DNA of 64,000 bases. It comes from Candidatus Omnitrophota bacterium (lineage in GTDB: Bacteria; Omnitrophota; Gorgyraeia; Gygaellales; Profunditerraquicolaceae). The stretch's first letter is position 1; each line of letters begins with the position of its first letter. Of the stretch, positions 5,906-59,954 are shown piece after piece. A model generated the notes under the pieces. It worked only from the letters and a program-made list of their open reading frames with translations. It was not told where the DNA came from and made no database searches. Location: the NCBI GenBank assembly GCA_028713155.1, contig JAQTPA010000004.1:8305-72304 (forward strand), read 5' to 3'. The position numbers were made by a program, and so were the translations under genes.

Positions 5906-6457
5906 GTGGTAAGGAACATCGCGGCAGTTATTTTTTCCCTGTTTTTTATTAACCAATTAGCTAACGGAGTATACGGAATGGATAACCAAATCGTGGTGCT
6001 GGAGACTAATCAGGGTTCTATAGAAATCAGGCTTATGCCTGAAGCAGCGCCTAAGGCCTGCGAAAATTTTACCAAGCTTGTTGAGAAAGGTTATTATAAC
6101 GGATTGATTTTTCACCGGGTGATCAAGGATTTTATGATTCAGGGAGGAGACCCGACTGCCACAGGCGCCGGCGGAGAATCTATCTGGGGAAAACCTTTTG
6201 CCGACGAAGTAACCCCGGGAGCCAAATTTGATAAACCCGGGAGTGTGGCTATGGCCAATGCCGGGCCGAATACCAATGGCAGCCAGTTTTTTATCACTAC
6301 TGCCGCTACGCCCTGGCTGAATATGCGCCATACAATTTTCGGTGAAGTGGTTAAAGGCTATGATGTGGTGCAGAAGATTGAAAATACGCCTACCAGTTCG
6401 TCTGACCGGCCGCAGGCCGAACAAAAAATAATCAAGGCATATTTGAAGGAAGAATAA
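5906..6457 (+). CDS. ppiB: cyclophilin-type peptidyl-prolyl cis-trans isomerase
   Basis: '[15 protein letters not shown]...GSQFFITT' is the cyclophilin signature. A GTG start at 5906 adds a possible signal peptide. The alternative ATG at 5978 would give a cytoplasmic form. Confidence 0.85.
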
Positions 6458-23477: not shown

Positions 23478-24657
23478 GCGCGTCGTAATTACAGGGTTAG
23501 GAGTAGTATCTTCCATCGGAATAGGTAAAGACGATTTCTGGAAGGCTTTGACCGCAGGAACTTCCGGGATCAGCAAGGTCAGTTCTTTTGATACTTCCGA
23601 ATATCCCACGCATTACGGCGGAGAGGTAAAGGGTTTTAACTCTGAGGCTAAAAATATGGGCCGGGCCTCACAACTAGCAATAGCTTCGGCTAAGCTCGCC
23701 TTAAGTGATGCCGGAATAAAATTAGATAATCCCGGGCTTGCCGAAACCGGCGTGGTTATCGGCACAACTATGGGAGAGTCCCAGGTTCTCGAGAAATTGA
23801 ATGACGCTTGGGTAAAAAAAGGAACCGAGGCAATCGACCCGGCATTAATCCCCCAGTATCCCTGTAATGTGCTTTCACTGAATGTCGCTAAGGAATTAAA
23901 ACTAAATGGACCAAACCTGGTTATACCTAATGCCTGTGCTGCGGGGAATTACGCTATAGGCTATGCCTATGATCTTATCCGTATGGCTAGGGTTGATACT
24001 ATGTTGGCAGGAGGCACAGACGCGTTTTCCCGGATCGCCTTTATCGGTTTTAACCGGCTGCTCGCGGTTGCGCCGGAGAAATGCCAGCCGTTTGATAAGA
24101 ACAGGAAAGGGATGCTGGTAGCCGAGGGTTCGGCAATGATTCTTATTGAAACGCTGGAGGCAGCCTTAAAAAGAGGCGCGCAAATTTACGCTGAGATTTT
24201 AGGCTATGGTTTAAGTTGCGATGCCCATCATATGACCGCGCCTTTTTCCGAAGGGATAGAAGAAGCTATTGAGAAAGCGCTTAAACAGAGTAAGATCCCG
24301 CCGGAAAGAATAGATTATTTCAGCGCTCACGGCACAGGAACACCCGCTAATGACCGGGAAGAGTGCGGGGCAATAAAAAAAGTATTCGGCGATTATTCTA
24401 AAAAATTACCGGTCAGTTCCATTAAATCCATGCTGGGGCATACCATGGGAGCTGCTTCGGCAATTGAGGCAGTTGCCTGCGCCTTAAGCGTTAAAAATGA
24501 TATTATTCCTCCCACGATAAATTTCCAGACTCCTGATCCGGAGTGCAATATTGACTGTGTCCCGAATGTTGCCCGTGCGGCAAGGGTAGATGTTGCTTTA
24601 AACAGCGCTTCTGCTTTTGGCGGGAATAACGCCTGCCTGGTGCTTAAGAAGTTTTAG
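23461..24657 (+). CDS. beta-ketoacyl-ACP synthase (catalytic KS, FabF/FabB-like)
   Basis: Catalytic Cys in '[13 protein letters not shown]', His in '[11 protein letters not shown]' and 'GHTMGAAS'. Confidence 0.85.
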
Positions 24658-25786
24658 AAACAGGATCCATGTTCTTGGGCTCAATTAACGGTTTGATCAT
24701 CCGGATAATAAAGTTAAGGATCGGGTTAAAAGCCCTGGCGTATATATCTAACGCTACGAGTTTGGCTCCCAGCCGTATTTTAGGATGATAGTCGCTAAAA
24801 CCCGGTTGATAAGCTTTAAGCTTATGCTCTATGCACCACTCAATATTATGACAGAAAGTCGTATAATAAAGGTGGTATTTATGGGCTACCGTGTAATCAA
24901 ATCCGATGAATTTATCGATAAATATGCCTTCTTTGATCAAGCATAAATTGAAGGCTACGATTTTATCCTTATCATAAGTAATGAAATATTTAGCTACCCC
25001 GGGCATATTTTTACAGATATCCAGAAAGAATTTCCTGGTAAGGGTTTCAAAATGTACGTCCGCTTCAGCAACATTGTTCAGGTATAGTTTGTAGATATCG
25101 TCGATTATATCGGTTATATCCAGGCGTTCTTCGGTTTTAAGCTGAACAATTTCCCCTGAGCGGCGTAATTTCTTTTTGAGGTCTTTGCGGGTGTTCCTGC
25201 TTAATCCTCGCAGATAATCTTCCAGCGAACCCGCCATTATATTAATTGCGGTAGTAGGCAGTGTCTCCATTTTTATGAATTTTATTCTTTTGAGGTATTC
25301 GGCAAGCTTTAAGGATTTAGCCGAGAGGTTATAGAAGGCCATTCCTAATATCTTTTCTCTTTTAGAAAATTCCTGCAATTTTTCCAGCGCCTGGTCTAAG
25401 GCTGCTTCAAGATCTACTTCAGGAGATAACCCCATTGAAAATCCTTCGGTGGTAGGCGAGCCGGCAAAAAGGAGTTTTATTTTTAACCAGCGGCCGAGGA
25501 CTGCGGCTGCTTTATGCAGGTATTCAGGGAGGAGCATCGCAAAAGAGAAATCCATCACAAAGAAAGGCAGGATTAATACGCTACGGTTTTTTTCTTTTCC
25601 GACCAGGTAGCCGAAAGAAAATTCTTCAGTTCCGCCTTCCTCCAGGGTTTTTAAGTAACCGTAGCTTTCAACCAGGTCCTGGCCAAAAAGCCTATCCCAA
25701 TCTTCCGCAGGTATAGCGCGTATCTTTTTAACTATGGAAAAGCTTAAGTCCGGCAGGGTTTCTTTCATAGGGCTGTAGTATAACAA
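24644..25786 (-). CDS. DUF482/FemAB-like GNAT-fold protein (COG3146 family)
   Basis: 380 aa and the only minus-strand gene in the window. The C-terminal block '[30 protein letters not shown]' matches the conserved DUF482 core. Confidence 0.55.
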
Positions 25787-39862: not shown

Positions 39863-41389
39863 ATGGTTGATCAACATACAAAAAAGGTTTCCTGGAATTT
39901 TTTTTCCGGGCTGGTTATAAGCAGCTTATTGGTATTACAACTTACCCGCTGGCTCATCCTGCCGCAGTTTATGGATATTTATTACCATCTTCTTACTGCC
40001 CAGGGTTTTATCCAGGCCGGCGGATACAGCGGTTGGGATTTCTGGCAGTACGCGCCTGCCGGCAGGCCGCATATTTACCCGCCGTTTTTCCATCTGGCGT
40101 TAGCGGGGTTTATCCAAGCCGGGGTAAACCCGGTTATCCTGGCTAAATTATGCGAATCACTCATCCCGGTTGTCCTGTTAATAACTTTATGGAAGTTTAT
40201 TAAAGATAATTACGGCCCGGAATTGGCTTTTTTCAGTGCCCTGCTTTTCTTTTCATCGTCTTCTTTTTACCTTTCTTTGTTGAACCATATCCCCGCGACC
40301 CTTTCTTTAATATTCGGGATTTTGTCCTTAAGCCAGTTATTTAAAAAAAGGCTGCTGCGTTCGGCAATATTATTGAGCCTCGTTTTTTATACGCACATCG
40401 GCATATCCTTCTTTTTCGCAATGACTTTTCTGATCTACGGTTTATTAAACAAGGAGATCAGGAAAAGGGCGACCGGAGTTTTGCTAACCGCGCTTATCCT
40501 TGGCCTGCCCATTATAATCAAGGAACTCAGCGTATTGAAGTTTATGCATACCTTCGGATTCAATCTGCATGAGAAATATTTATGCCAGATTAAAATAATT
40601 GAATCTATCTTAGGGGTTATCGGATTATTTCAGTCGTTAAAAAGAGGCAAAGAATACCGCCTGTTTGCAGGGATGTTCCTGGCGAGCCTAGTATTTATAA
40701 TTTACCCTTACCGTCTTTTATCAGCCGAAGGGTATTTACCCATAATACTGCTTTGTGCGTTTTGCCTCCTGAATTTATACCGCAAGGTAAACAAGCGTTA
40801 TCTGATTTTGGTTATCGCGGTATTTATCCTGTTTTTTTCGCCCACTTTTTCAATGTATAAAGAAGTCCGGGAGACAAAGATAGATTATAAGGTGAAGATG
40901 TTCGATTCGGCTTTCCTGAATTTATTACTTGCCAGGAGCAAAATATTCTGGTTCCCCCAAGAGTATATCTCCGCGGCTAAAATAGTGGAAGCTAATTCCG
41001 CTCCCGCAGACGTAACTTACTGCACCCTGGATTTTTTAGGCCTGACTATCTCCAGTATAGCTGCCCGGCCAAGTGCCAATGCCCTTTTACCCGAAATAAA
41101 AACGGTAAAAGGCTTTAATCCCTTTATAGGCTCGACAATAATCATATTTACCCGCATTGATGATGAGAGGATGGTGGATTTAACGGTAAGGAAGCTTAAT
41201 CTAGTCAAGGTAGGAGAGAATAAGTTTTTTTTGGTGTATAAAAATACCGGTTGCCGCTCTCAGGCCGGCGTAATAAAAGCCACTCTGCCGTTTTGGGTGG
41301 TTAGCTGCGCGGCTGCATTACTCTTGTTTATTTTTTGGCAGGCAGCCAGGATTGAAGGATTTATATATAAATTCATAAAAAATATTTGA
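39863..41389 (+). CDS. polytopic membrane protein, GT-C fold glycosyltransferase-like (PMT_2/ArnT-type)
   Basis: 508 aa with >10 TM segments. Its N-terminal pattern 'MDIYYH...GYSGWDFW...RPHIYPPFFHLALAGF...ELAFFSALLF' resembles the PMT_2/ArnT family (family consensus recalled from memory, not searched). Confidence 0.4.
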   Translation: MVDQHTKKVSWNFFSGLVISSLLVLQLTRWLILPQFMDIYYHLLTAQGFIQAGGYSGWDFWQYAPAGRPHIYPPFFHLALAGFIQAGVNPVILAKLCESLIPVVLLITLWKFIKDNYGPELAFFSALLFFSSSSFYLSLLNHIPATLSLIFGILSLSQLFKKRLLRSAILLSLVFYTHIGISFFFAMTFLIYGLLNKEIRKRATGVLLTALILGLPIIIKELSVLKFMHTFGFNLHEKYLCQIKIIESILGVIGLFQSLKRGKEYRLFAGMFLASLVFIIYPYRLLSAEGYLPIILLCAFCLLNLYRKVNKRYLILVIAVFILFFSPTFSMYKEVRETKIDYKVKMFDSAFLNLLLARSKIFWFPQEYISAAKIVEANSAPADVTYCTLDFLGLTISSIAARPSANALLPEIKTVKGFNPFIGSTIIIFTRIDDERMVDLTVRKLNLVKVGENKFFLVYKNTGCRSQAGVIKATLPFWVVSCAAALLLFIFWQAARIEGFIYKFIKNI

Positions 41390-48732: not shown

Positions 48733-50082
48733 ATGGCAAAAAAATTATGGGGTGGAAGATTTAGTAAGAAAACTGACCCGTTGGTAGAAGAATTTACCAA
48801 GTCAATACAGTATGATTATAAATTGATGAACTTTGATATTATTGGTTCGCTGGCGCATATTAAAATTCTGTGTAAGGCCGGTTACTTATCCTCTATGGAA
48901 TCATCCAAGCTTGAAAATGCGCTGGATTCCCTTTTTAAAAAAATAAAGAAAGGTTTCAAGCCTCCTGTTAATAACGAGGATATACATACTTATATCCAAA
49001 ATGAATTGCAGAAAAAAGTGGGAGATTTAGCGCTCAAGCTGCATACCGCGCGGTCAAGAAATGATCAGGTAGTATTTGCTACAAAGTTATATTGTTACGC
49101 CGCCACAGGAACATTGCAGAAAACTGCTAATAGCCTGGTGTCTGCAATAAAGGGTTTGAGCCTAAAAAAGGAGAATAAGGATTTGATTCTTCCCGGTTTT
49201 ACCCATTTGCAACACGCTCAGCCAGTGTATCTGAGGGATTATCTGGGAGCTTATATTTCAATGTTAAAAAGGGATATATCCAGATTGGAATTTTTATCCA
49301 CTAACCTGAATATAACTTTAGGTGCCGGTGCGTTGGCAGGAACCCCCATAATGTCCTCCAAATATAACGAAAACCTGAAAAGCTATATTATGGAGGAGGA
49401 CTTAAAAGGATTGATTAAACCGGTTACAAATTCTTTGGATTCAGTAAGCGATAGAGATTTCGTGATTGAGATTATCGGTGTTTTATCTATTGTCGCTATG
49501 CATCTTTCAAGATTAGCTGAAGATTTGATTATCTGGTCCACGAAAGAATTTGATTTTGTGGAGATTGATGAGGCCTTCTGCACGGGAAGCTCACTTATGC
49601 CTCAAAAGAAGAATCCGGATGTCTTAGAGTTAATCAGGGGATATGCCGGAAGATTATACGGTAATCTTATAAGCGCTTTAACAATGATGAAAGGGCTACC
49701 TTTAACCTACAACAGGGATATGCAGTTGGATAAAGAGCCGCTGTTTAACTCCTTTGAAATAGTTTCTAGTGAGCTAAAGGTCTTGGCTGGTTTGATCAAA
49801 ACTTTGAAATTTAACAAGTCTAAAATAGAAGAGTACCTTGAAGACGAAGGCCTTTATGCTACGGATTTAGTATATTATCTTGTGGATAAAAAAATCCCCT
49901 TTAAAGAAGCGCATACTATTATCGGGAAGCTAGTAAGATATTCCATAGATAACGATATTCAGATTAAAGAGCTGCCGGAAGGCTTACTCAAGAAATTTTC
50001 CGATAAATTCGTTAAGAAAGAAATAGTTAAGCTATTTGATCCCTTAATTTCAGTGAAGTCGAAAAAGTCGATTAAGAGATAA
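48733..50082 (+). CDS. argH: argininosuccinate lyase
   Basis: 'LWGGRF' N-terminus and fumarate-lyase signature 'GSSLMPQKKNPD'. Confidence 0.9.
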   Translation: MAKKLWGGRFSKKTDPLVEEFTKSIQYDYKLMNFDIIGSLAHIKILCKAGYLSSMESSKLENALDSLFKKIKKGFKPPVNNEDIHTYIQNELQKKVGDLALKLHTARSRNDQVVFATKLYCYAATGTLQKTANSLVSAIKGLSLKKENKDLILPGFTHLQHAQPVYLRDYLGAYISMLKRDISRLEFLSTNLNITLGAGALAGTPIMSSKYNENLKSYIMEEDLKGLIKPVTNSLDSVSDRDFVIEIIGVLSIVAMHLSRLAEDLIIWSTKEFDFVEIDEAFCTGSSLMPQKKNPDVLELIRGYAGRLYGNLISALTMMKGLPLTYNRDMQLDKEPLFNSFEIVSSELKVLAGLIKTLKFNKSKIEEYLEDEGLYATDLVYYLVDKKIPFKEAHTIIGKLVRYSIDNDIQIKELPEGLLKKFSDKFVKKEIVKLFDPLISVKSKKSIKR

Positions 50083-51361: not shown

Positions 51362-52180
51362 ATGCATAAAATAAAATTTACTAAAATGGTTGCTTCCGGT
51401 AACGATTTCGTCGTTATCGAAGCTAAAAGCGTCAAGCCCCTTCCTGTCCGGCAGGCAGGAAAATCCGGAAGTTTAAGCGGTCTGGCCAGGATCCTCTGTG
51501 ACCGGAAATACGGAATAGGCGCGGATGGCTTACTGGTTTTGGAAAAAGCGCTTCCTGGCGGTGTAAAAATGCGCATCTTTAACAGCGATGGCTCAGAAGC
51601 CGAGATGTGCGGTAATGGCAGCCGCTGCGCTAGCCTTTGGATGGGCTTAAAGACGTTAAATCTTAAGACCCGGGCCGGGGCCGTTGAATCAATCGTCAAA
51701 AAAGACCAGGTCAAAATAAAACTTACTAATCCTAAAGGTTTAAGGCTGGATATCCCTCTTAAGATAAATAACCGCGGCATTAAGGTAAATTTTATTAATA
51801 CCGGAGTCCCGCATGCGGTAATATTTGTTTCCGGAGTAGATAAAATTAACGTGCAAGGCATTGGCAGATCCATCCGTTACCATAATAAATTTTCTCCGGC
51901 AGGGGCAAATGTGGATTTTATTGAGGTTTTAGGCAAAGATGCGCTAAGGATCCGTACTTATGAAAGGGGAGTTGAAGATGAGACGCTTGCCTGCGGCACC
52001 GGAAGTGTCGCTGCGGCGCTGATTTTTGCTTTGAAGGCGGATGTTTCGAATAAAGTATATGTGCATACAAGAAGCGGCGAAATTTTAAAAATTTATTTTA
52101 AGAAGGATAATTCCCGGTTTACGGATGTCTGGCTTGAGGGTAAAGCGCGGGCAGTTTACAAAGGAGAATATTATGTTTAA
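51362..52180 (+). CDS. dapF: diaminopimelate epimerase
   Basis: 'FTKMVASGNDFVV' and the catalytic Cys pair 'MCGNGSRC' / 'ACGTGS'. Confidence 0.85.
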   Translation: MHKIKFTKMVASGNDFVVIEAKSVKPLPVRQAGKSGSLSGLARILCDRKYGIGADGLLVLEKALPGGVKMRIFNSDGSEAEMCGNGSRCASLWMGLKTLNLKTRAGAVESIVKKDQVKIKLTNPKGLRLDIPLKINNRGIKVNFINTGVPHAVIFVSGVDKINVQGIGRSIRYHNKFSPAGANVDFIEVLGKDALRIRTYERGVEDETLACGTGSVAAALIFALKADVSNKVYVHTRSGEILKIYFKKDNSRFTDVWLEGKARAVYKGEYYV

Positions 52181-53063
52181 AGGCTCAATTGTAGCCATTG
52201 TCACGCCATTTTCCGTTGAAGGCGCAAAATCAACGGTTGATGAAAAAAAACTTAGAGAGTTAATTGAATTTCAGATTAAAAACGGCACTGCGGGTATCGT
52301 ACCCTGCGGCACAACCGGAGAATCGGCGACCCTGTCTTTTGAAGAACACGAGCAGGTAATTGAAGTTACTATTGCCCAGGTTAGAAAAAGAGTGCCGGTA
52401 ATCGCCGGGACAGGTTCGAACTCAACCGCAGAAGCCATACTGCTGACTAAGCATGCCGCCAGTGCCGGTTCAGACGCTTCGCTGCAGGTTTCTCCTTATT
52501 ATAACCGTCCGACTCAAAAAGGGCTCTACGAACATTTTAAGGCCGTAGCGGATTCGGTAGATATTCCGATCATCCTTTATAATATCGCTTCGCGCACCGG
52601 AGTAAATATTGAGCCTGAGACAATCGCCAGATTAGCCGCTGATTGTAAAAATATCGCCGGGGTAAAAGAAGCTTCGGGTAATTTAGAGCAGATGTCGCGC
52701 ATAAAGGCGCTTTGCCCGCCGAATTTTGAGTTGATTTCTGGTGATGATGGCCTGACTCTTCCCGTATTAAGCCTCGGCGGGATAGGGATAATCTCCGTAG
52801 TGGCCAATATTGCGCCGCGGGATGTAGCTGATTTAGTCAGCGAGTTTGAAAAAGGGAACATTAAAAAAGCCCGGGAGCTGCATTATAAATTATTGCCCTT
52901 GGTTAAAGCTATGTTTGTTGAGACTAACCCTATTCCCGTAAAAACAGCGCTGGGGTTATTGGGCATGTGCGAGCCGGCCTTGCGTTTACCGATGTGTGCG
53001 CTCTCTTCGGATAACCTGGAAAAACTTAAAAAAGCCCTGCGGGACTATAATCTTTTAAAATAA
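52173..53063 (+). CDS. dapA: 4-hydroxy-tetrahydrodipicolinate synthase
   Basis: Start at ATG 52173. 'GSIVAIVTPF', 'GTTGES' and 'LYNIASRTG'. Confidence 0.85.
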   Translation: MFKGSIVAIVTPFSVEGAKSTVDEKKLRELIEFQIKNGTAGIVPCGTTGESATLSFEEHEQVIEVTIAQVRKRVPVIAGTGSNSTAEAILLTKHAASAGSDASLQVSPYYNRPTQKGLYEHFKAVADSVDIPIILYNIASRTGVNIEPETIARLAADCKNIAGVKEASGNLEQMSRIKALCPPNFELISGDDGLTLPVLSLGGIGIISVVANIAPRDVADLVSEFEKGNIKKARELHYKLLPLVKAMFVETNPIPVKTALGLLGMCEPALRLPMCALSSDNLEKLKKALRDYNLLK

Positions 53064-53070
53064 ACCTAAA

Positions 53071-55638
53071 ATGAACAATAAGAGAGTTTTTTTATTTGCT
53101 CTAATCGCTGTCTCCCTTGGCCTAAACATATATTTTCGGCTGAATACCCTATTTTTATGGTCTCTGGATAAAAAGGCAAAAAAAGAAGTTCATGTCGCTA
53201 TTGTCGATAAATTGTACAAAGAGATTAATCTGGTGTATTCCGGGCTCGGCGAGGCAGATAAGGTGGAATTGTTGGAGAGCGCGTTTAAGCTGTATTTAAA
53301 AGAAAATAAGGCCGAAGTCAAGAAAGCTATCTTTGAAAAAAGCCAGGGGTTAAAAGCCTATTACCGGGATAAGGACGGCTGGACATATATGCAGGAGGTC
53401 GATCCCTATCGTTGGTATAGGAGGGTAGACAATTTTTTAAAGAACGGAAATTTTGGCACAGTACGTATTAATAACCAGGATTACGATACCCTTATGCTTG
53501 CTCCTTTTGGGGCGAAGATCGAACCCCTAAAGCTGCATTTCTACATAGGCGCATATTTTTATAGATTCGTGCATTTTATAAATAATAAATTATCCCTTAT
53601 GTCCGCGCTTAGTTTTCTCCCCGTATTTCTTTCGGTTTTCCTGGTAATAGCCGTATTCTCTATTGCGCTTATGCTGGGCGTATCCCATGCGGGGAGTTTT
53701 GTCGCCAGCTTAGCCGTAGGCTTATCCCCCGTGATATTGATGCGTTCAAGCTTCGGATGGTTCGATACGGATATCTATAATATATTTTTGCCGTTATTTA
53801 TCGCTTATCTGGCTGCGTATTCTTTTAAAGTAAAAGGCCTAAAGCATATTCTTTTTTTATTTTTAGCGGGATTAACAACCGGTGTATATTCGGCGATATG
53901 GTCTATCTGGTGGTTTATTTTTTATATTATAGCCGCCGGCTTATTCCTGCATGAACTTTGTATGGTAAGTTATGACCCGCGCAGCAGTAAGAAGGCCAAG
54001 ATAAAAGATGCCTTTTTATCTTTAGCATTATTTATTCTATCCACCTACCTATGGGTAGGGGTTATTTCGGGCCCTGAGGCAATAGCCGGGTCTTTTTCAG
54101 GGCCGTTTTCAATTTTGTCGACGCGGCAAAATTTGGCAATAGCTAATTTCTGGCCCAACATGGCATTTTCTATACAGGAATTAAACAGCTCCGGAGTCGC
54201 TTATATAAGAGGAGGGTTGGGAGGAGGCCTTATTTTATGCGGCGGGCTGCTGGGGATCTTAGTGTTGATTATTAAAAAAAGAGTCTTGGTTAATTTTTCA
54301 GAAAAAAGTTTTTTGTTATTCGTTTTAACCGTATGGTTGTTGGTAATGCTTATTCTAACCTCCCTCTCTAAAAGATTTATTATATTCCTGGCCGTGCCGA
54401 TAGGTATTTTCTTCGGAGCATTTTTAGATACCCTCAGGGATTTTATGTATAGGCAAAAAGACAAGATTATTTTCTTACGTAAGATTAATGAGAAAGCCTA
54501 TATCACCCTGTTAAGCGGCATATTCTTGGCAGGCGCTATATTACCCATACGCGCCGCATCCAGAGAGGTATTCTTGCCTATCTTAAATAATACGTGGCAG
54601 CATATGCTGATAAAGATAAAGAATGTAACTCCGCCGGATGCAGTTATCAGCGCTTACTGGGATCCCGGGGATTTTATTATGAGCGTCTCCGGGCGCGCGA
54701 CCCTGCACTGCCCCCAATATAATTTTACGCCGGTGGCCTACTGGACCGCGAGATTATTTATGTCGGACAATGAAAAAGAAGCGTTGGGGATATTGCGGAT
54801 GTTAAACGCCGGCAATACTCAGGGATTTGAAGAGCTATTAAAACTTACCGGCGGGGAAAAATTAGCGGCGTTTGAATTAATCAATAAGATGCTGCTCTGC
54901 GATAAATATGGAGGCCGTTCCTTATTAAGCAGGTATACGGACGATAAAAAGCTTATAGATAAGATCCTTGGCCTTATCTATGAGCCTAAGCATCCTGCTT
55001 ACTTGCTGGTGGATGGGGGCCTGTTGAACATGGTTGAGGTTTTTTGTACTCTAGCAAATTGGGATTTCAAAAAATTGGATTTATGGCAGAATATGGAGAC
55101 GGCGGATAAAGTTAAATTTACAACTTATGCCGGAAAAAAGTTTGGTTATTCTAAGGCCCAGGCCGAGTCCCTTTACCAAACAATGTGGCTGACCAGCAGG
55201 AAAAGGCCGCTAGATTGGATCTCAAGCGAAAGGTACCGGCTGTATAGCAGCGGGTTGGCGCAGAGATCCGGCGCTAAAGACGAAAAGATCATACGCTTCA
55301 ATAACGGCTTATTAGTGGATAAAGACAATTCCAGTTTTTTTTACAGGCAGGATATGCCTCAGAAATGGATAATCCCTGGAGAAATAGTTCTTGTTACCAA
55401 GGACAGGATAAAAGAAAAGGCGCTTAAAGGAGACAGCGAATATTCGCTTTTATTTTTAGAGAGCAAGGATACCTACGAAGCAATTTTAATGGATAAGCGA
55501 TTAGCGCGCAGTATGCTGATTAAGTTATATTTTATGAAAGGCAAAGGGTTAAAGTATTTTCAGCTCATCGAGCAGGAAGAGAATAAAGAAACGGGCTTGC
55601 GTATATATTTATATAAGATTAACTGGAGCGCTAAGTAA
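53071..55638 (+). CDS. STT3/AglB/PglB-like oligosaccharyltransferase homologue (GT-C) with degenerate WWDYG motif
   Basis: 855 aa with a TM-rich N-terminal half and a ~350-aa soluble C-terminal domain. After the last TM comes 'SAYWDPGDFIMSVSGRATLHCPQYNFTPVAYWTARLFMSDNEKEALGIL', which parallels the eukaryotic STT3 block '[47 protein letters not shown]'. Confidence 0.45.
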   Translation: MNNKRVFLFALIAVSLGLNIYFRLNTLFLWSLDKKAKKEVHVAIVDKLYKEINLVYSGLGEADKVELLESAFKLYLKENKAEVKKAIFEKSQGLKAYYRDKDGWTYMQEVDPYRWYRRVDNFLKNGNFGTVRINNQDYDTLMLAPFGAKIEPLKLHFYIGAYFYRFVHFINNKLSLMSALSFLPVFLSVFLVIAVFSIALMLGVSHAGSFVASLAVGLSPVILMRSSFGWFDTDIYNIFLPLFIAYLAAYSFKVKGLKHILFLFLAGLTTGVYSAIWSIWWFIFYIIAAGLFLHELCMVSYDPRSSKKAKIKDAFLSLALFILSTYLWVGVISGPEAIAGSFSGPFSILSTRQNLAIANFWPNMAFSIQELNSSGVAYIRGGLGGGLILCGGLLGILVLIIKKRVLVNFSEKSFLLFVLTVWLLVMLILTSLSKRFIIFLAVPIGIFFGAFLDTLRDFMYRQKDKIIFLRKINEKAYITLLSGIFLAGAILPIRAASREVFLPILNNTWQHMLIKIKNVTPPDAVISAYWDPGDFIMSVSGRATLHCPQYNFTPVAYWTARLFMSDNEKEALGILRMLNAGNTQGFEELLKLTGGEKLAAFELINKMLLCDKYGGRSLLSRYTDDKKLIDKILGLIYEPKHPAYLLVDGGLLNMVEVFCTLANWDFKKLDLWQNMETADKVKFTTYAGKKFGYSKAQAESLYQTMWLTSRKRPLDWISSERYRLYSSGLAQRSGAKDEKIIRFNNGLLVDKDNSSFFYRQDMPQKWIIPGEIVLVTKDRIKEKALKGDSEYSLLFLESKDTYEAILMDKRLARSMLIKLYFMKGKGLKYFQLIEQEENKETGLRIYLYKINWSAK

Positions 55639-55651
55639 GGAGAGAGCGGCA

Positions 55652-56362
55652 ATGATAAAATTAGGAGTTGCTGGTGTTTGCGGGAAAATGGGCAGGCGTA
55701 TTTTTGAATTAGCGTCACGCGACCCGGATTTTGAACTGGCTCTGGCCCTGGAAAAAAGAGGGACTCCGGCCATCGGCAGGGATATCGGAAAGTTGAAAAT
55801 ATCTTCTAATACCGACGGCTTGTTCCTTATTGATGTGCTGGTGGATTTTACTGTCCCTGAGGCAGCCGAAGTAAGCCTGGATTATGCGGCTAAATATAAA
55901 AAAGCGCTTATCCTGGGGACAACGGGCCTGAGCGATACTCAAGTTAAGAAAGTTGAAGAAATCAGCCGCGTCGTGCCGGTGGTGTTTACCCCGAATATGG
56001 CTATCGGCGTAAATGTATTATTTGGGATTTTGCCGCAGATCGCCAAAAAACTAGGGCCGGATTATAGTATGGAGATCGTAGAAGCGCATCATAAAACTAA
56101 AAAAGACGCTCCTTCCGGCACAGCAAAAAAACTGACGGAAATTTTAGGTGAAGAAACCGGAAAACAGATACCCGTGCATTCTATCCGCCTAGGAGATATT
56201 GTAGGAGACCATACGGTTATATTTTGCGGTAATTCCGAACGCATTGAAATAAAACACCAGGCGCATTCGCGCGATCTATTTGCTTTGGGGGCTTTAAAAG
56301 CGGCAAAGTGGATCTTCGGCAAGCCCGCCGGGTTATATTCAATGCAGGACGTATTAAAATAG
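55652..56362 (+). CDS. dapB: 4-hydroxy-tetrahydrodipicolinate reductase
   Basis: 'KLGVAGVCGKMGRRI' and 'EIVEAHHKTKKDAPSGTA'. Confidence 0.85.
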   Translation: MIKLGVAGVCGKMGRRIFELASRDPDFELALALEKRGTPAIGRDIGKLKISSNTDGLFLIDVLVDFTVPEAAEVSLDYAAKYKKALILGTTGLSDTQVKKVEEISRVVPVVFTPNMAIGVNVLFGILPQIAKKLGPDYSMEIVEAHHKTKKDAPSGTAKKLTEILGEETGKQIPVHSIRLGDIVGDHTVIFCGNSERIEIKHQAHSRDLFALGALKAAKWIFGKPAGLYSMQDVLK

Positions 56363-59652: not shown

Positions 59653-59904
59653 GTGAATCAGAAAATGGCAGAAAAATTAGTGAAACTCGGAATCAAGAGA
59701 GCAAAGGGTTTCCTCTATTACATTGACAAGCAAGGTGACGTCTCCTGTGCCAAAATGGCAAGGGGCGCGAAAAAAGGAGGCAGCCCGAAGAAGGTAGCCA
59801 AGTGCGGCATCAAGAGAAAAGAGGGTTACCTTTATTTCTTGGACAAGAAAGGTGATGTTTCCTGCGCCAAGATGAAAAGAGGCGGTAAAAAGAAAAAAAG
59901 ATAA
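59653..59904 (+). CDS. small basic protein made of two tandem ~37-aa repeats
   Basis: 83 aa. 'KLGIKRAKGFLYYIDKQGDVSCAKMARGAKKGG' is followed by 'KCGIKRKEGYLYFLDKKGDVSCAKMKRGGKKKK'. RBS aagggggg upstream and a strong terminator downstream. Confidence 0.5.
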   Translation: MNQKMAEKLVKLGIKRAKGFLYYIDKQGDVSCAKMARGAKKGGSPKKVAKCGIKRKEGYLYFLDKKGDVSCAKMKRGGKKKKR

Positions 59905-59906
59905 GT

Positions 59907-59954
59907 AAAAAAAGGGGGCGGTTCTGTTTTTTTATAAAAAACAGAACCGCCCCC
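59907..59954. terminator. strong (bidirectional-capable) rho-independent terminator
   Basis: 19-bp stem gggggcggttctgtttttt / aaaaaacagaaccgccccc around a tata loop, flanked by A- and T-runs. Confidence 0.75.

Follow-up and report, generated by a model that had tools for sequence, protein, structure and literature searches.

A probable oligosaccharyltransferase of proposed archaeal descent carried in the dap operon of an Omnitrophota bacterium

Introduction

A gene for a putative membrane glycosylation enzyme inside an amino-acid biosynthesis operon raises two questions: what does its product do, and why is it there? In this study we focus on a 64,000-nucleotide stretch of DNA from an uncultured Candidatus Omnitrophota bacterium (contig JAQTPA010000004.1; hereafter the window), in which an open reading frame (ORF) for an 855-aa protein lies between dapA and dapB, two genes of diaminopimelate (DAP) synthesis. 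A first-pass annotation of this DNA had described the product as a homologue of the STT3/AglB-like oligosaccharyltransferases (OSTs) with a degenerate catalytic motif, and had suggested either an uncharacterised glycosylation activity or a catalytically altered paralogue. To our knowledge, characterised bacterial N-glycosylation of the STT3 type is limited to Campylobacterota and a few Desulfobacterota-type lineages.

Sequence comparisons and a predicted structure lead us to propose that the protein is probably a functional single-subunit OST of archaeal descent, carried as a passenger of the dap operon, and that it belongs to a clade (the dap clade) in which recognition of the acceptor at its +2 position and of the donor would have changed.

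The protein is a member of the STT3/AglB/PglB family

The gene under study is the following:
53071..55638, + strand: STT3/AglB/PglB-family (GT66) OST homologue, 855 aa (ORF with ATG start; Pfam PF02516, E 5.7e-25)

The kind of protein, a recognisable STT3-domain protein, is already known and annotated, since the NCBI entry identical to the window protein is titled 'MAG: STT3 domain-containing protein [Candidatus Omnitrophica bacterium]' (MAG, metagenome-assembled genome). The Pfam PF02516 (STT3) match spans residues 94-460 and reaches 89.1 bits against a cut-off of 24.5 bits; NCBIfam TIGR04154, the model for archaeosortase-A-associated STT3 proteins, gives 42.9 bits, below its 450-bit cut-off. 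Family profiles were needed to go further, because a single-sequence phmmer search of the PDB returned marginal matches only (E 0.05-0.2). A profile built from 29 family members recovers AglB, PglB and STT3A/B in the PDB, and a profile that includes the archaeal sister clade described below scores AglB at 95 bits (E 3.8e-26), STT3A at 89 bits (3.4e-24) and PglB at 79 bits (2.2e-21). The Pfam and AglB scores are far above chance level.

The AlphaFold2 (AF2) model computed from the family alignment has a mean pLDDT (predicted local distance difference test) of 88 and a pTM (predicted TM-score) of 0.86. Its first transmembrane (TM) helix, TM1, comprises residues 2-28; residues 29-154 make up an external loop of about 126 aa, after which come 12 more membrane helices up to about residue 497. 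Together the helices are consistent with a GT-C fold of 13 TM segments, to which a C-terminal domain of 350 aa is added. When the model was compared with the PDB using Foldseek, the best 19 matches were all catalytic subunits of OSTs, with PglB (5OGL) first (E 1.7e-20, target-normalised TM-score 0.69), and the other GT-C enzymes (DPY19, AftA, ArnT and the PMTs) ranked far behind. The parts outside the common membrane core are:
53074..53154, + strand: TM1, residues 2-28 (model helix H2-28; family-conserved 'NxYFRL')
53155..53370, + strand: helical insertion (residues 29-100, about 70 aa) that follows TM1 and precedes the catalytic loop; the model has helices at 31-55, 61-78 and 80-96
54583..55635, + strand: C-terminal periplasmic domain, about 350 aa, residues 505-855 (AF2 model; Foldseek match 3AAG)

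The helical insertion is specific to a family of Omnitrophota and Woesearchaeota proteins, most full-length matches of which cover it; relatives from Methanobacterium and the solved OSTs align only from about residue 95-110, past the insertion. This insertion, common to the Omnitrophota and Woesearchaeota proteins, is new. The C-terminal domain of Campylobacter jejuni PglB (3AAG) is matched by Foldseek and also by the profile, over positions 708-852.

Thus the window gene is a true STT3/AglB/PglB (GT66) homologue. The first-pass annotation was right on this point, as it was on the ORF and on the architecture that it sketched (a TM anchor, an external loop, about 12 further TM segments and a C-terminal domain of about 350 aa), which the model reproduces. 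The STT3-like fold and the motif similarity on which the assignment had been based were both recovered, the former with PglB at the top of the Foldseek ranking and the latter by a profile search in which YWDPG aligned to WWDYG.

The catalytic site is conserved and the recognition motifs differ

The two DXD motifs and the TIXE motif form the catalytic and metal site of OSTs, and WWDYG together with the DK or MI motif forms the Ser/Thr-binding pocket for the sequon (PMC8342417). The DGGK motif, found in bacteria and Euryarchaeota and with DNXTZNX[T/S] as its alternative form, is thought to bind the lipid-linked oligosaccharide (PMC8342417). We read the corresponding positions of the window protein from hidden Markov model (HMM) alignments to AglB, PglB and STT3A:
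53395..53403, + strand: first DXD-type motif E109-V-D111 in external loop (EL) 1, with the catalytic Asp (aligns with AglB 'ND47P' and STT3A 'EFD49PY')
53755..53772, + strand: second DXD motif G-W-F-D232-T-D234 (aligns with PglB 'GYYDTD' and AglB 'GFNDHH')
54169..54183, + strand: TIXE/SVSE-type motif S-I-Q-E370-L in EL5 (aligns with PglB 'TIMEV')
54370..54378, + strand: K-R435-F, conserved Arg of the lipid-phosphate site (aligns with PglB 'LRF' and AglB 'NRF')
54655..54672, + strand: Y-W-D-P-G-D, derived WWDYG, the Ser/Thr-pocket motif (aligns with WWDYG of AglB, PglB and STT3)
54706..54723, + strand: H-C-P-Q-Y-N (from H546), derived F-D-G-x-x-Q (aligns with PglB 'LIDGGKH', the DGGK position)
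55060..55086, + strand: W-D665-F-K-K668-L-D-L-W, candidate DK-type motif (DxxK), by pattern and position only

The DxD/ExD motif that the first-pass annotation had raised for the first external loop is present as E109-V-D111, and D111 is 100% conserved across all clades. E370 is also 100% conserved, within an EL5 motif whose consensus in the wider family is T-V-A-E-L. The block 'YWDPGDF...GRATL...LFMSDNEKEALGIL' (residues 529-575) is aligned by phmmer and hmmsearch to the STT3A block ending AMASTEEKAYEIM, and the same residues are aligned to 'WWDYGN...' in the C-terminal domain of an archaeal AglB. Relative to WWDYG, YWDPG (Y529-G533) keeps W2, D3 and G5, with Tyr in place of W1 and Pro in place of Y4. 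The DGGK or DNXTZNX[T/S] motif that follows WWDYG is not matched, H-C-P-Q-Y-N having Cys for Asp and Pro for Gly. The HMM alignments to solved OSTs end before WDFKK because of a helical insertion of about 60 aa; we take STT3 'DDINKFLW' to be its DK-motif counterpart, a correspondence that the alignment could not confirm. Within the dap clade this candidate motif is well conserved (W664 98-100%, D665 96%, K/R668 96%).

As judged from these alignments, the predicted catalytic and metal-binding residues D111, D232/D234, E370 and R435 are intact in the window protein, which differs from canonical OSTs mildly in the putative acceptor-recognition motif, and also in the DGGK-like motif. The motif block had thus been correctly singled out as non-canonical. 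Its description as a degenerate catalytic motif is a mislabel, because WWDYG forms the Ser/Thr pocket for the sequon (PMC8342417) and the catalytic residues are all present.

A large Omnitrophota family with archaeal relatives

An exhaustive HMM search of 1.84 billion cluster representatives (50%-identity clusters) returned 4,083 proteins at E<=1e-3, of which 1,266 also pass E<=1e-30; E values of the top 150 lie below about 1e-147, and most of these matches align near end to end. A canonical WWD[F/Y]G is found in 119 of the 177 sequences analysed, with T-V-x-E-L as the TIXE-type motif and F-D-G as the DGGK-like motif. Named members of about 830-870 aa belong to Omnitrophota, and named members of 930-1140 aa to Candidatus Woesearchaeota (DPANN archaea) in six cases out of six. 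The YxxExDxY and GWFDTD motifs are shared by more distant relatives, from MAGs of Methanobacterium and Methanomicrobiales. With the methanogen sequences as root, a neighbour-joining (NJ) tree unites the Omnitrophota proteins in a single group beside that of the Woesearchaeota.

AglB is considered ancestral in archaea and its bacterial homologues are viewed as transfers from archaea; in a 2016 phylogeny these homologues were few and all nested among euryarchaeal sequences (PMC4973528). The simplest reading of our approximate tree is a transfer from archaea to Omnitrophota separate from that of PglB. Literature searches on Omnitrophota or Omnitrophica with oligosaccharyltransferase, STT3 or N-glycosylation returned nothing relevant, and papers on Omnitrophota genomics were also silent. 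This large Omnitrophota OST family, sister to DPANN enzymes, is therefore new with respect to the literature searched.

Two side observations concern these relatives. In a Methanobacterium MAG (L019, 7890-12309), two STT3-like genes lie in tandem, the first broken into two ORFs; their DWSYGH and EWDYGN motifs are non-canonical, and YxxExDxY and GWFDTD are as in the Omnitrophota family. Paralogues of this kind, methanogen AglB proteins in which the Ser/Thr pocket is altered, may deserve a study of their own. Several entries titled 'Patescibacteria group' (L015), 'uncultured Planctomycetia' (L010/L002) or 'Margulisiibacteriota' (P0315) have Omnitrophota-type genes, probably through errors of binning or taxonomy; in L015 the Omnitrophota operon is complete, and DapA and DapB are 76-78% identical.

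Canonical relatives lie near glycosyltransferase and pilin genes

Of the canonical Omnitrophota loci, 24 come with 4 kb of flank or more; a glycosyltransferase (GT) gene of the GT2, GT4 or GT-C type lies within 6 kb in 20 of these, and five have GspF or prepilin genes; Pfam confirms the glycosyltransferase context at L016 and L018. At L016 the STT3 homologue follows gspE, gspF and five prepilin-like genes, four of which together encode 17 N-X-S/T sequons against about 5.7 expected from composition, three being individually significant. A pseudopilin operon surrounds the homologue at L006. Nearly all Omnitrophota have type-4a pili, for which a role in host attachment has been proposed (PMC10066038). 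Taken together, these contexts are suggestive of an ancestral role of the family in protein N-glycosylation served by a dedicated glycan cluster, in which pilin-like proteins may be among the substrates.

The dap loci are different: no GT2 or GT4 gene lies within 6 kb in any of the 13 dap-clade loci, and the sole glycosyltransferase-like gene nearby encodes a PMT_2 GT-C protein, beyond a terminator-like palindrome. A tblastn search of the 64-kb window with the GT2 and GT-C neighbours of canonical relatives found nothing, and glycan-assembly genes, which the first-pass annotation had proposed to look for at neighbouring loci, did not appear in it. The idea of pilin substrates comes from relatives, because the window has no prepilin-like ORF.

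The dap clade has drifted in the sequon-pocket and donor motifs

In the NJ tree the window protein falls in the dap clade, which is monophyletic and nested within Omnitrophota lineages that have WWD[Y/F]G[D/N/H]W and F-D-G. We counted motif residues in 46 dap-clade, 51 other Omnitrophota and 86 Woesearchaeota-type sequences, gathered without a motif filter; since the metagenome loci had been chosen by their WWD pattern, the table was recomputed without them, and the result was unchanged. In the dap clade D111, D232, D234 and E370 are 100% conserved, and R435 is conserved in 91% (Lys in 9%). The recognition motifs behave otherwise. Of the dap-clade sequences, 17% keep W1 of the WWD triad and 52% its Asp (D3), compared with 98-100% and 76-100%, respectively, in the sister clades. 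For F-D-G, the Asp is kept in 59% (Cys in 41%, the window protein included) against 100%, and the Gly in 4% against 80-100%. The clade is overall less diverse than its sisters, and within it W1 and D3 rank at the 28th and 48th percentiles of site conservation, so that they behave as unconstrained sites. The window protein, which keeps Y-W-D, shows a mild version of this change, the early dap-clade member L004 keeps WWDYGD, and a sister 'WWPPG' group also has no WWD Asp. Such a pattern speaks against decay and for altered recognition of acceptor (+2) and donor in this clade specifically, as predicted from the alignments. A dap-operon sub-clade with conserved catalysis and drifting sequon-pocket and donor motifs is new.

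How far this change goes is the main point on which explanations part. The transferase may have been neofunctionalised, keeping the catalytic site and the lipid-linked glycan and no longer reading N-X-S/T, with an acceptor that could be Asn in another context, another nucleophile or a non-protein component of the envelope. We regard this as possible, though clearly less probable than the OST proposed above. It would account for the loss of constraint specifically at W1, D3 and F-D-G while the catalytic residues are invariant in a clade otherwise more conserved than its sisters, for the loss of glycosyltransferase adjacency (0/13 other dap-clade loci with GT2/GT4 within 6 kb, against 20/24 canonical ones), for the missing Pfam STT3-PglB_core match of the window protein, and for the absence of the Asp in the 'WWPPG' group too. 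However, D111 and E370, which engage the acceptor carboxamide in solved OSTs, are invariant, conservation of the DK-like motif, the candidate second half of the Ser/Thr pocket, is 96%, Y-W-D is kept in the window protein and WWDYGD in L004, and none of the data suggests an alternative acceptor. It is, in the same measure, a minority expectation that the dap clade holds a natural OST with a rewritten sequon code, with acceptors outside the N-X-S/T rule or an unusual donor.

The protein might also act mainly as a hydrolase of lipid-linked oligosaccharide, releasing free oligosaccharides into the periplasm. OSTs of all domains hydrolyse this substrate when no acceptor is available, and the side activity is known in eukaryotic, bacterial and archaeal enzymes (PMC8342417); a weakened peptide pocket would favour it. 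We consider this explanation improbable: the peptide-facing TIXE-type loop and the DK-like motif are still conserved, the large C-terminal domain is under purifying selection equal to that of the membrane domain, and no datum here is specific to hydrolysis.

The gene is probably an accessory insertion in a housekeeping operon

The immediate neighbours of the STT3 gene, and the probable end of its transcription unit, are:
52125..53063, + strand: dapA (DHDPS, 4-hydroxy-tetrahydrodipicolinate synthase), upstream neighbour (Pfam DHDPS, E 1.8e-101)
55652..56362, + strand: dapB (4-hydroxy-tetrahydrodipicolinate reductase), downstream neighbour (Pfam DapB_N and DapB_C)
59914..59954, no strand assigned: terminator-like palindrome (19-bp stem) at which the arg-dap-STT3-fol-pan transcription unit probably ends

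The Pfam matches on either side confirm the position between dapA and dapB, from which the gene is separated by 7 nt and 13 nt, respectively. It belongs to a co-directional 18-kb block, argB-argD-argF-argG-argH-lysA-dapF-dapA-[STT3 ORF]-dapB-aminotransferase-folK-panC-aspartate dehydrogenase, closed by a small 83-aa gene. A scan for promoters and terminators gave no excess over shuffled sequences and nothing convincing around the STT3 gene; only the palindrome at 59914-59954 stands out. This palindrome is perfect, has A/T runs on both sides (GGGGGCGGTTCTGTTTTTT...AAAAAACAGAACCGCCCCC), is terminator-like in both directions and lies just before the PMT_2 gene. No Shine-Dalgarno sequence is evident before the STT3 gene (53064-53070, TAAACCTAAAATG), and a strong GGAG ribosome-binding site precedes dapB (55639-55651, TAAGGAGAGAGCGGCAATG); this difference would fit low translation of a membrane enzyme in a highly expressed operon.

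The dapA-STT3-dapB order was found in 13 fetched loci, with STT3 identities from 91% down to 36% and stop and start codons that often overlap, and the gene table of the P0006 contig has it too. In three relatives with DapB proteins 80-87% identical to that of the window (L105, L106 and the P0265 contig), the super-operon is the same except that the STT3 gene is missing and dapB comes immediately after dapA. In a tree of LysA, DapF, DapA, DapB and the aminotransferase, L105 and L106 are nested among the STT3-bearing loci, L106 as sister to the window's own subgroup; the STT3 gene has therefore been either cleanly lost at least twice or gained repeatedly. At the place of the STT3 gene, L106 has a 92-bp spacer between dapA and dapB (5909-6000) with a long imperfect inverted repeat (GGGACGGTTCTCAA...TTGAGAACCGTCCC), which could be a terminator, an element like the repetitive extragenic palindromes (REP) or a deletion scar. 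The P0265 contig carries other cargo, between dapB and the aminotransferase gene: a 607-aa protein without Pfam matches, a pair of methyltransferases, a heptosyltransferase-like protein of family GT9 and a protein of the radical SAM/SPASM type. Accessory genes for envelope modification seem to have hot spots at the junctions of this housekeeping operon.

Since relatives have the operon without STT3, and since it mixes unrelated housekeeping pathways (arg, lys/dap, folK, panC and aspartate dehydrogenase), the position of the STT3 gene is best accounted for by the insertion of an accessory gene at a junction that tolerates it, in an operon expressed constitutively, with no evident link to DAP or peptidoglycan chemistry. 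The first-pass annotation had called this position unusual; the insertion is real, as the three STT3-less relatives indicate, and it calls for no functional link. In a scan of one genome per species, no genome had a dap-type and a canonical copy together. Within the limits set by the incompleteness of MAGs, relocation of a single OST gene thus fits better than a paralogue, and the suggestion of a catalytically altered paralogue finds no support here, nor in the intact catalytic residues and the purifying selection reported below.

A coupling of the enzyme to diaminopimelate, lysine or peptidoglycan metabolism, for instance through a glycosylated cell-wall intermediate, has in its favour the gene order, which persists where STT3 identity is as low as 36% and in which the junctions are tight or overlap, and distant homologues in Methanobacterium, which contains pseudomurein. 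We rejected it, as relatives run the operon with dapA abutting dapB and no STT3 gene. The operon is moreover a mosaic of unrelated pathways, another relative has unrelated cargo at a neighbouring junction, and the canonical members are found in glycosylation clusters, never with dap genes. The idea is largely refuted, and we hold it very unlikely.

The gene is under purifying selection

Compared with three relatives at 78-91% protein identity, the STT3 gene has a dN/dS of 0.09-0.14, similar across its N-terminal, membrane and C-terminal parts. Other genes of the operon give comparable values (dapA 0.07, lysA 0.06-0.14, dapB 0.07-0.11, panC 0.15-0.20). From this signature in the codons we conclude that the STT3 gene is functional and not decaying. 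That it is an inactive relic decaying after relocation, as its non-canonical WWDYG and DGGK-like motifs, its lack of an evident Shine-Dalgarno sequence and its loss from some relatives might suggest, is the least probable explanation of all, rejected in view of the low dN/dS in all regions, an intact reading frame of family-typical length and catalytic residues that are invariant over 46 sequences diverging to about 36% identity.

Other features of the window

In the 49 ORFs of the window surveyed with Pfam we found housekeeping genes together with a PIG-L-family protein, the PMT_2 GT-C protein and an unassigned 508-aa membrane protein; five ORFs of the arg operon and four of the fab region, assigned by BLAST only or unscanned, lie outside this survey. 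No Rfam RNA family was found in the window. The 508-aa protein (39863-41389, + strand) is polytopic, has no Pfam match and shows a putative GT-C-like layout, with no significant BLAST similarity to the PMT_2 or STT3 proteins of the window. The 83-aa protein at the end of the operon (59653-59904, + strand) is very basic, has no Pfam match and consists of two repeats of about 35 aa (GIKRxxGYLYFxDKxGDVSCAKMxRGxKK); its place is kept in relatives at 76-96% identity, above most neighbouring enzymes. ArgH (48733-50082) is 44% (L009), 65% (L007) and 90% (L008) identical to its counterparts, the flanking argG and lysA products reach about 89-95% in L009 and L007, and GC content dips to 0.40 at 48-50 kb, which suggests that the argH allele was replaced within an otherwise vertically inherited operon. 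All function-assigned ORFs of the window (1-64000) are on the + strand except a FemAB-like gene (24644-25786), and the cumulative GC skew climbs steadily across it.

Discussion

In the mechanism that we propose, a 13-helix GT-C membrane domain would present a periplasm-facing site made of D111, D232/D234 and E370 together with R435, and this site would bind a divalent metal and a polyprenol-(di)phosphate-linked glycan. The acceptor segment, in an extended form, would pair with S-I-Q-E370 of EL5 and be held between EL5 and the C-terminal domain; D111 and E370 would activate the Asn amide, and the glycan would be transferred en bloc. The acceptor is most likely the Asn side-chain amide of exported proteins, type IV pilin-like proteins being the best candidate substrates. 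An ancestor of the Omnitrophota may have acquired the lineage from DPANN (Woesearchaeota-like) archaea, and one copy would have been inserted once between dapA and dapB of the housekeeping super-operon, where it would be transcribed with its neighbours as a passenger that can be dispensed with. The WWD triad and the DGGK-like motif of the dap clade would then have lost constraint, so that sequon stringency and donor preference probably differ from those of PglB, AglB and STT3.

Several points weigh against this proposal. The OST family described here is known from sequences and a predicted structure alone. The window protein does not reach the Pfam STT3-PglB_core model, which some relatives reach at least weakly. 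W1 and D3, which hydrogen-bond the hydroxyl of the +2 Ser/Thr, are no better conserved than average sites of the dap clade, and the DGGK-like Asp is Cys in the window protein; canonical N-X-S/T glycosylation is for these reasons not assured. The survey of the 49 ORFs found no GT2/GT4 cluster, flippase or initiating transferase in the window, and no prepilin-like ORF was found there. Among canonical loci the prepilin association holds in only about 20%, and the adjacent prepilins at L042 have no sequons. The trees are neighbour-joining only, with a few methanogen sequences as root, and we give the inter-domain transfer its direction from published work in which AglB is held to be ancestral in archaea (PMC4973528).

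The family is large and unstudied, with hundreds of 50%-identity clusters, nearest relatives among DPANN archaea and canonical members near glycosyltransferase clusters. Sequon-rich genes for type IV pilin-like proteins are sometimes adjacent to the canonical members, and host attachment by Omnitrophota nanobacteria is believed to depend on type IV pili (PMC10066038). The dap sub-clade represents a natural experiment, in which the catalytic site is conserved and the sequon-reading WWD pocket is drifting, and is relevant to the engineering of OSTs of relaxed acceptor specificity. If its sequon code is indeed rewritten, this would be a third, independent spread of N-glycosylation from archaea to bacteria, of a DPANN AglB into ultra-small Omnitrophota bacteria. 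The dapA-STT3-dapB order is also a warning on guilt by association, as an accessory insertion without functional coupling.

Comparison with known oligosaccharyltransferases

The reference sites for the comparison are the catalytic Asp (PglB D56, AglB D47, STT3A D49), the second DXD (PglB D154-x-D156), PglB E319 and the Arg (PglB R375, AglB R426). PglB of Campylobacter lari and C. jejuni (3RCE, 5OGL, 6GXC) comes closest in structure (Foldseek E 1.7e-20, target-normalised TM-score 0.69-0.70). Like the window protein, it is a bacterial single-subunit enzyme with 'DTD' as second DXD, the Glu of the TIXE-type loop, the Arg and a beta-rich C-terminal region (3AAG). However, identity is only 12-14%, and the family profile scores PglB below AglB and STT3A. 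The window protein has the extra helical insertion of about 70 aa after TM1, YWDPG for WWDYG, HCPQYN for DGGK and a DK-like instead of an MI (MxxI) motif, and its gene is not beside a pgl-type glycan-assembly cluster. The Campylobacterota-type PglB subfamily is marked by the MI motif, recognition of the extended sequon D/E-X-N-X-S/T and a gene located in a pgl glycan-assembly cluster. Membership of this subfamily was considered; against it stand the DK-like motif, the low identity, the absence of a glycosyltransferase cluster in the window and the archaeal nearest relatives, which also suggest an acquisition independent of PglB.

AglB-L of Archaeoglobus fulgidus (3WAJ, 5GMY, 7E9S) is the best profile match (95 bits, E 3.8e-26), with an alignment that is continuous from the EL1 Asp through TM13 and WWDYG. 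Both are single-subunit proteins with the two DXD motifs, the Arg and the WWDYG-His/Asp; they differ in that AglB has canonical WWDYG and DGGK/DK motifs, identity is about 14%, the TM-score is 0.47, and the lengths of the external loops and the elaborations of the C-terminal domain are not the same. The AglB-like proteins of Woesearchaeota form the sister clade in the NJ tree; they are full-length homologues that match the family profile at E 1e-150 to 1e-170, and homology spans TM1, the helical insertion and the whole C-terminal domain. Unlike in the window protein, their WWDFGHW and FDG motifs are canonical, the N-terminus is longer by 100-230 residues and GT2/GT4 genes lie nearby; no experimental characterisation of them was found in the literature searched.

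The eukaryotic STT3A and STT3B (6S7O, 6S7T) act within a multi-subunit complex at the ER (endoplasmic reticulum) translocon and are 16-18% identical to the window protein over partial alignments. They nevertheless share its Pfam family, a near-identical E-x-D-P-Y in EL1 (EVDPY here, EFDPY in STT3A), the 'S-x-x-E' form of EL5 and a similar helix after WWDYG ('EKEALGILRML' against 'EEKAYEIMREL').

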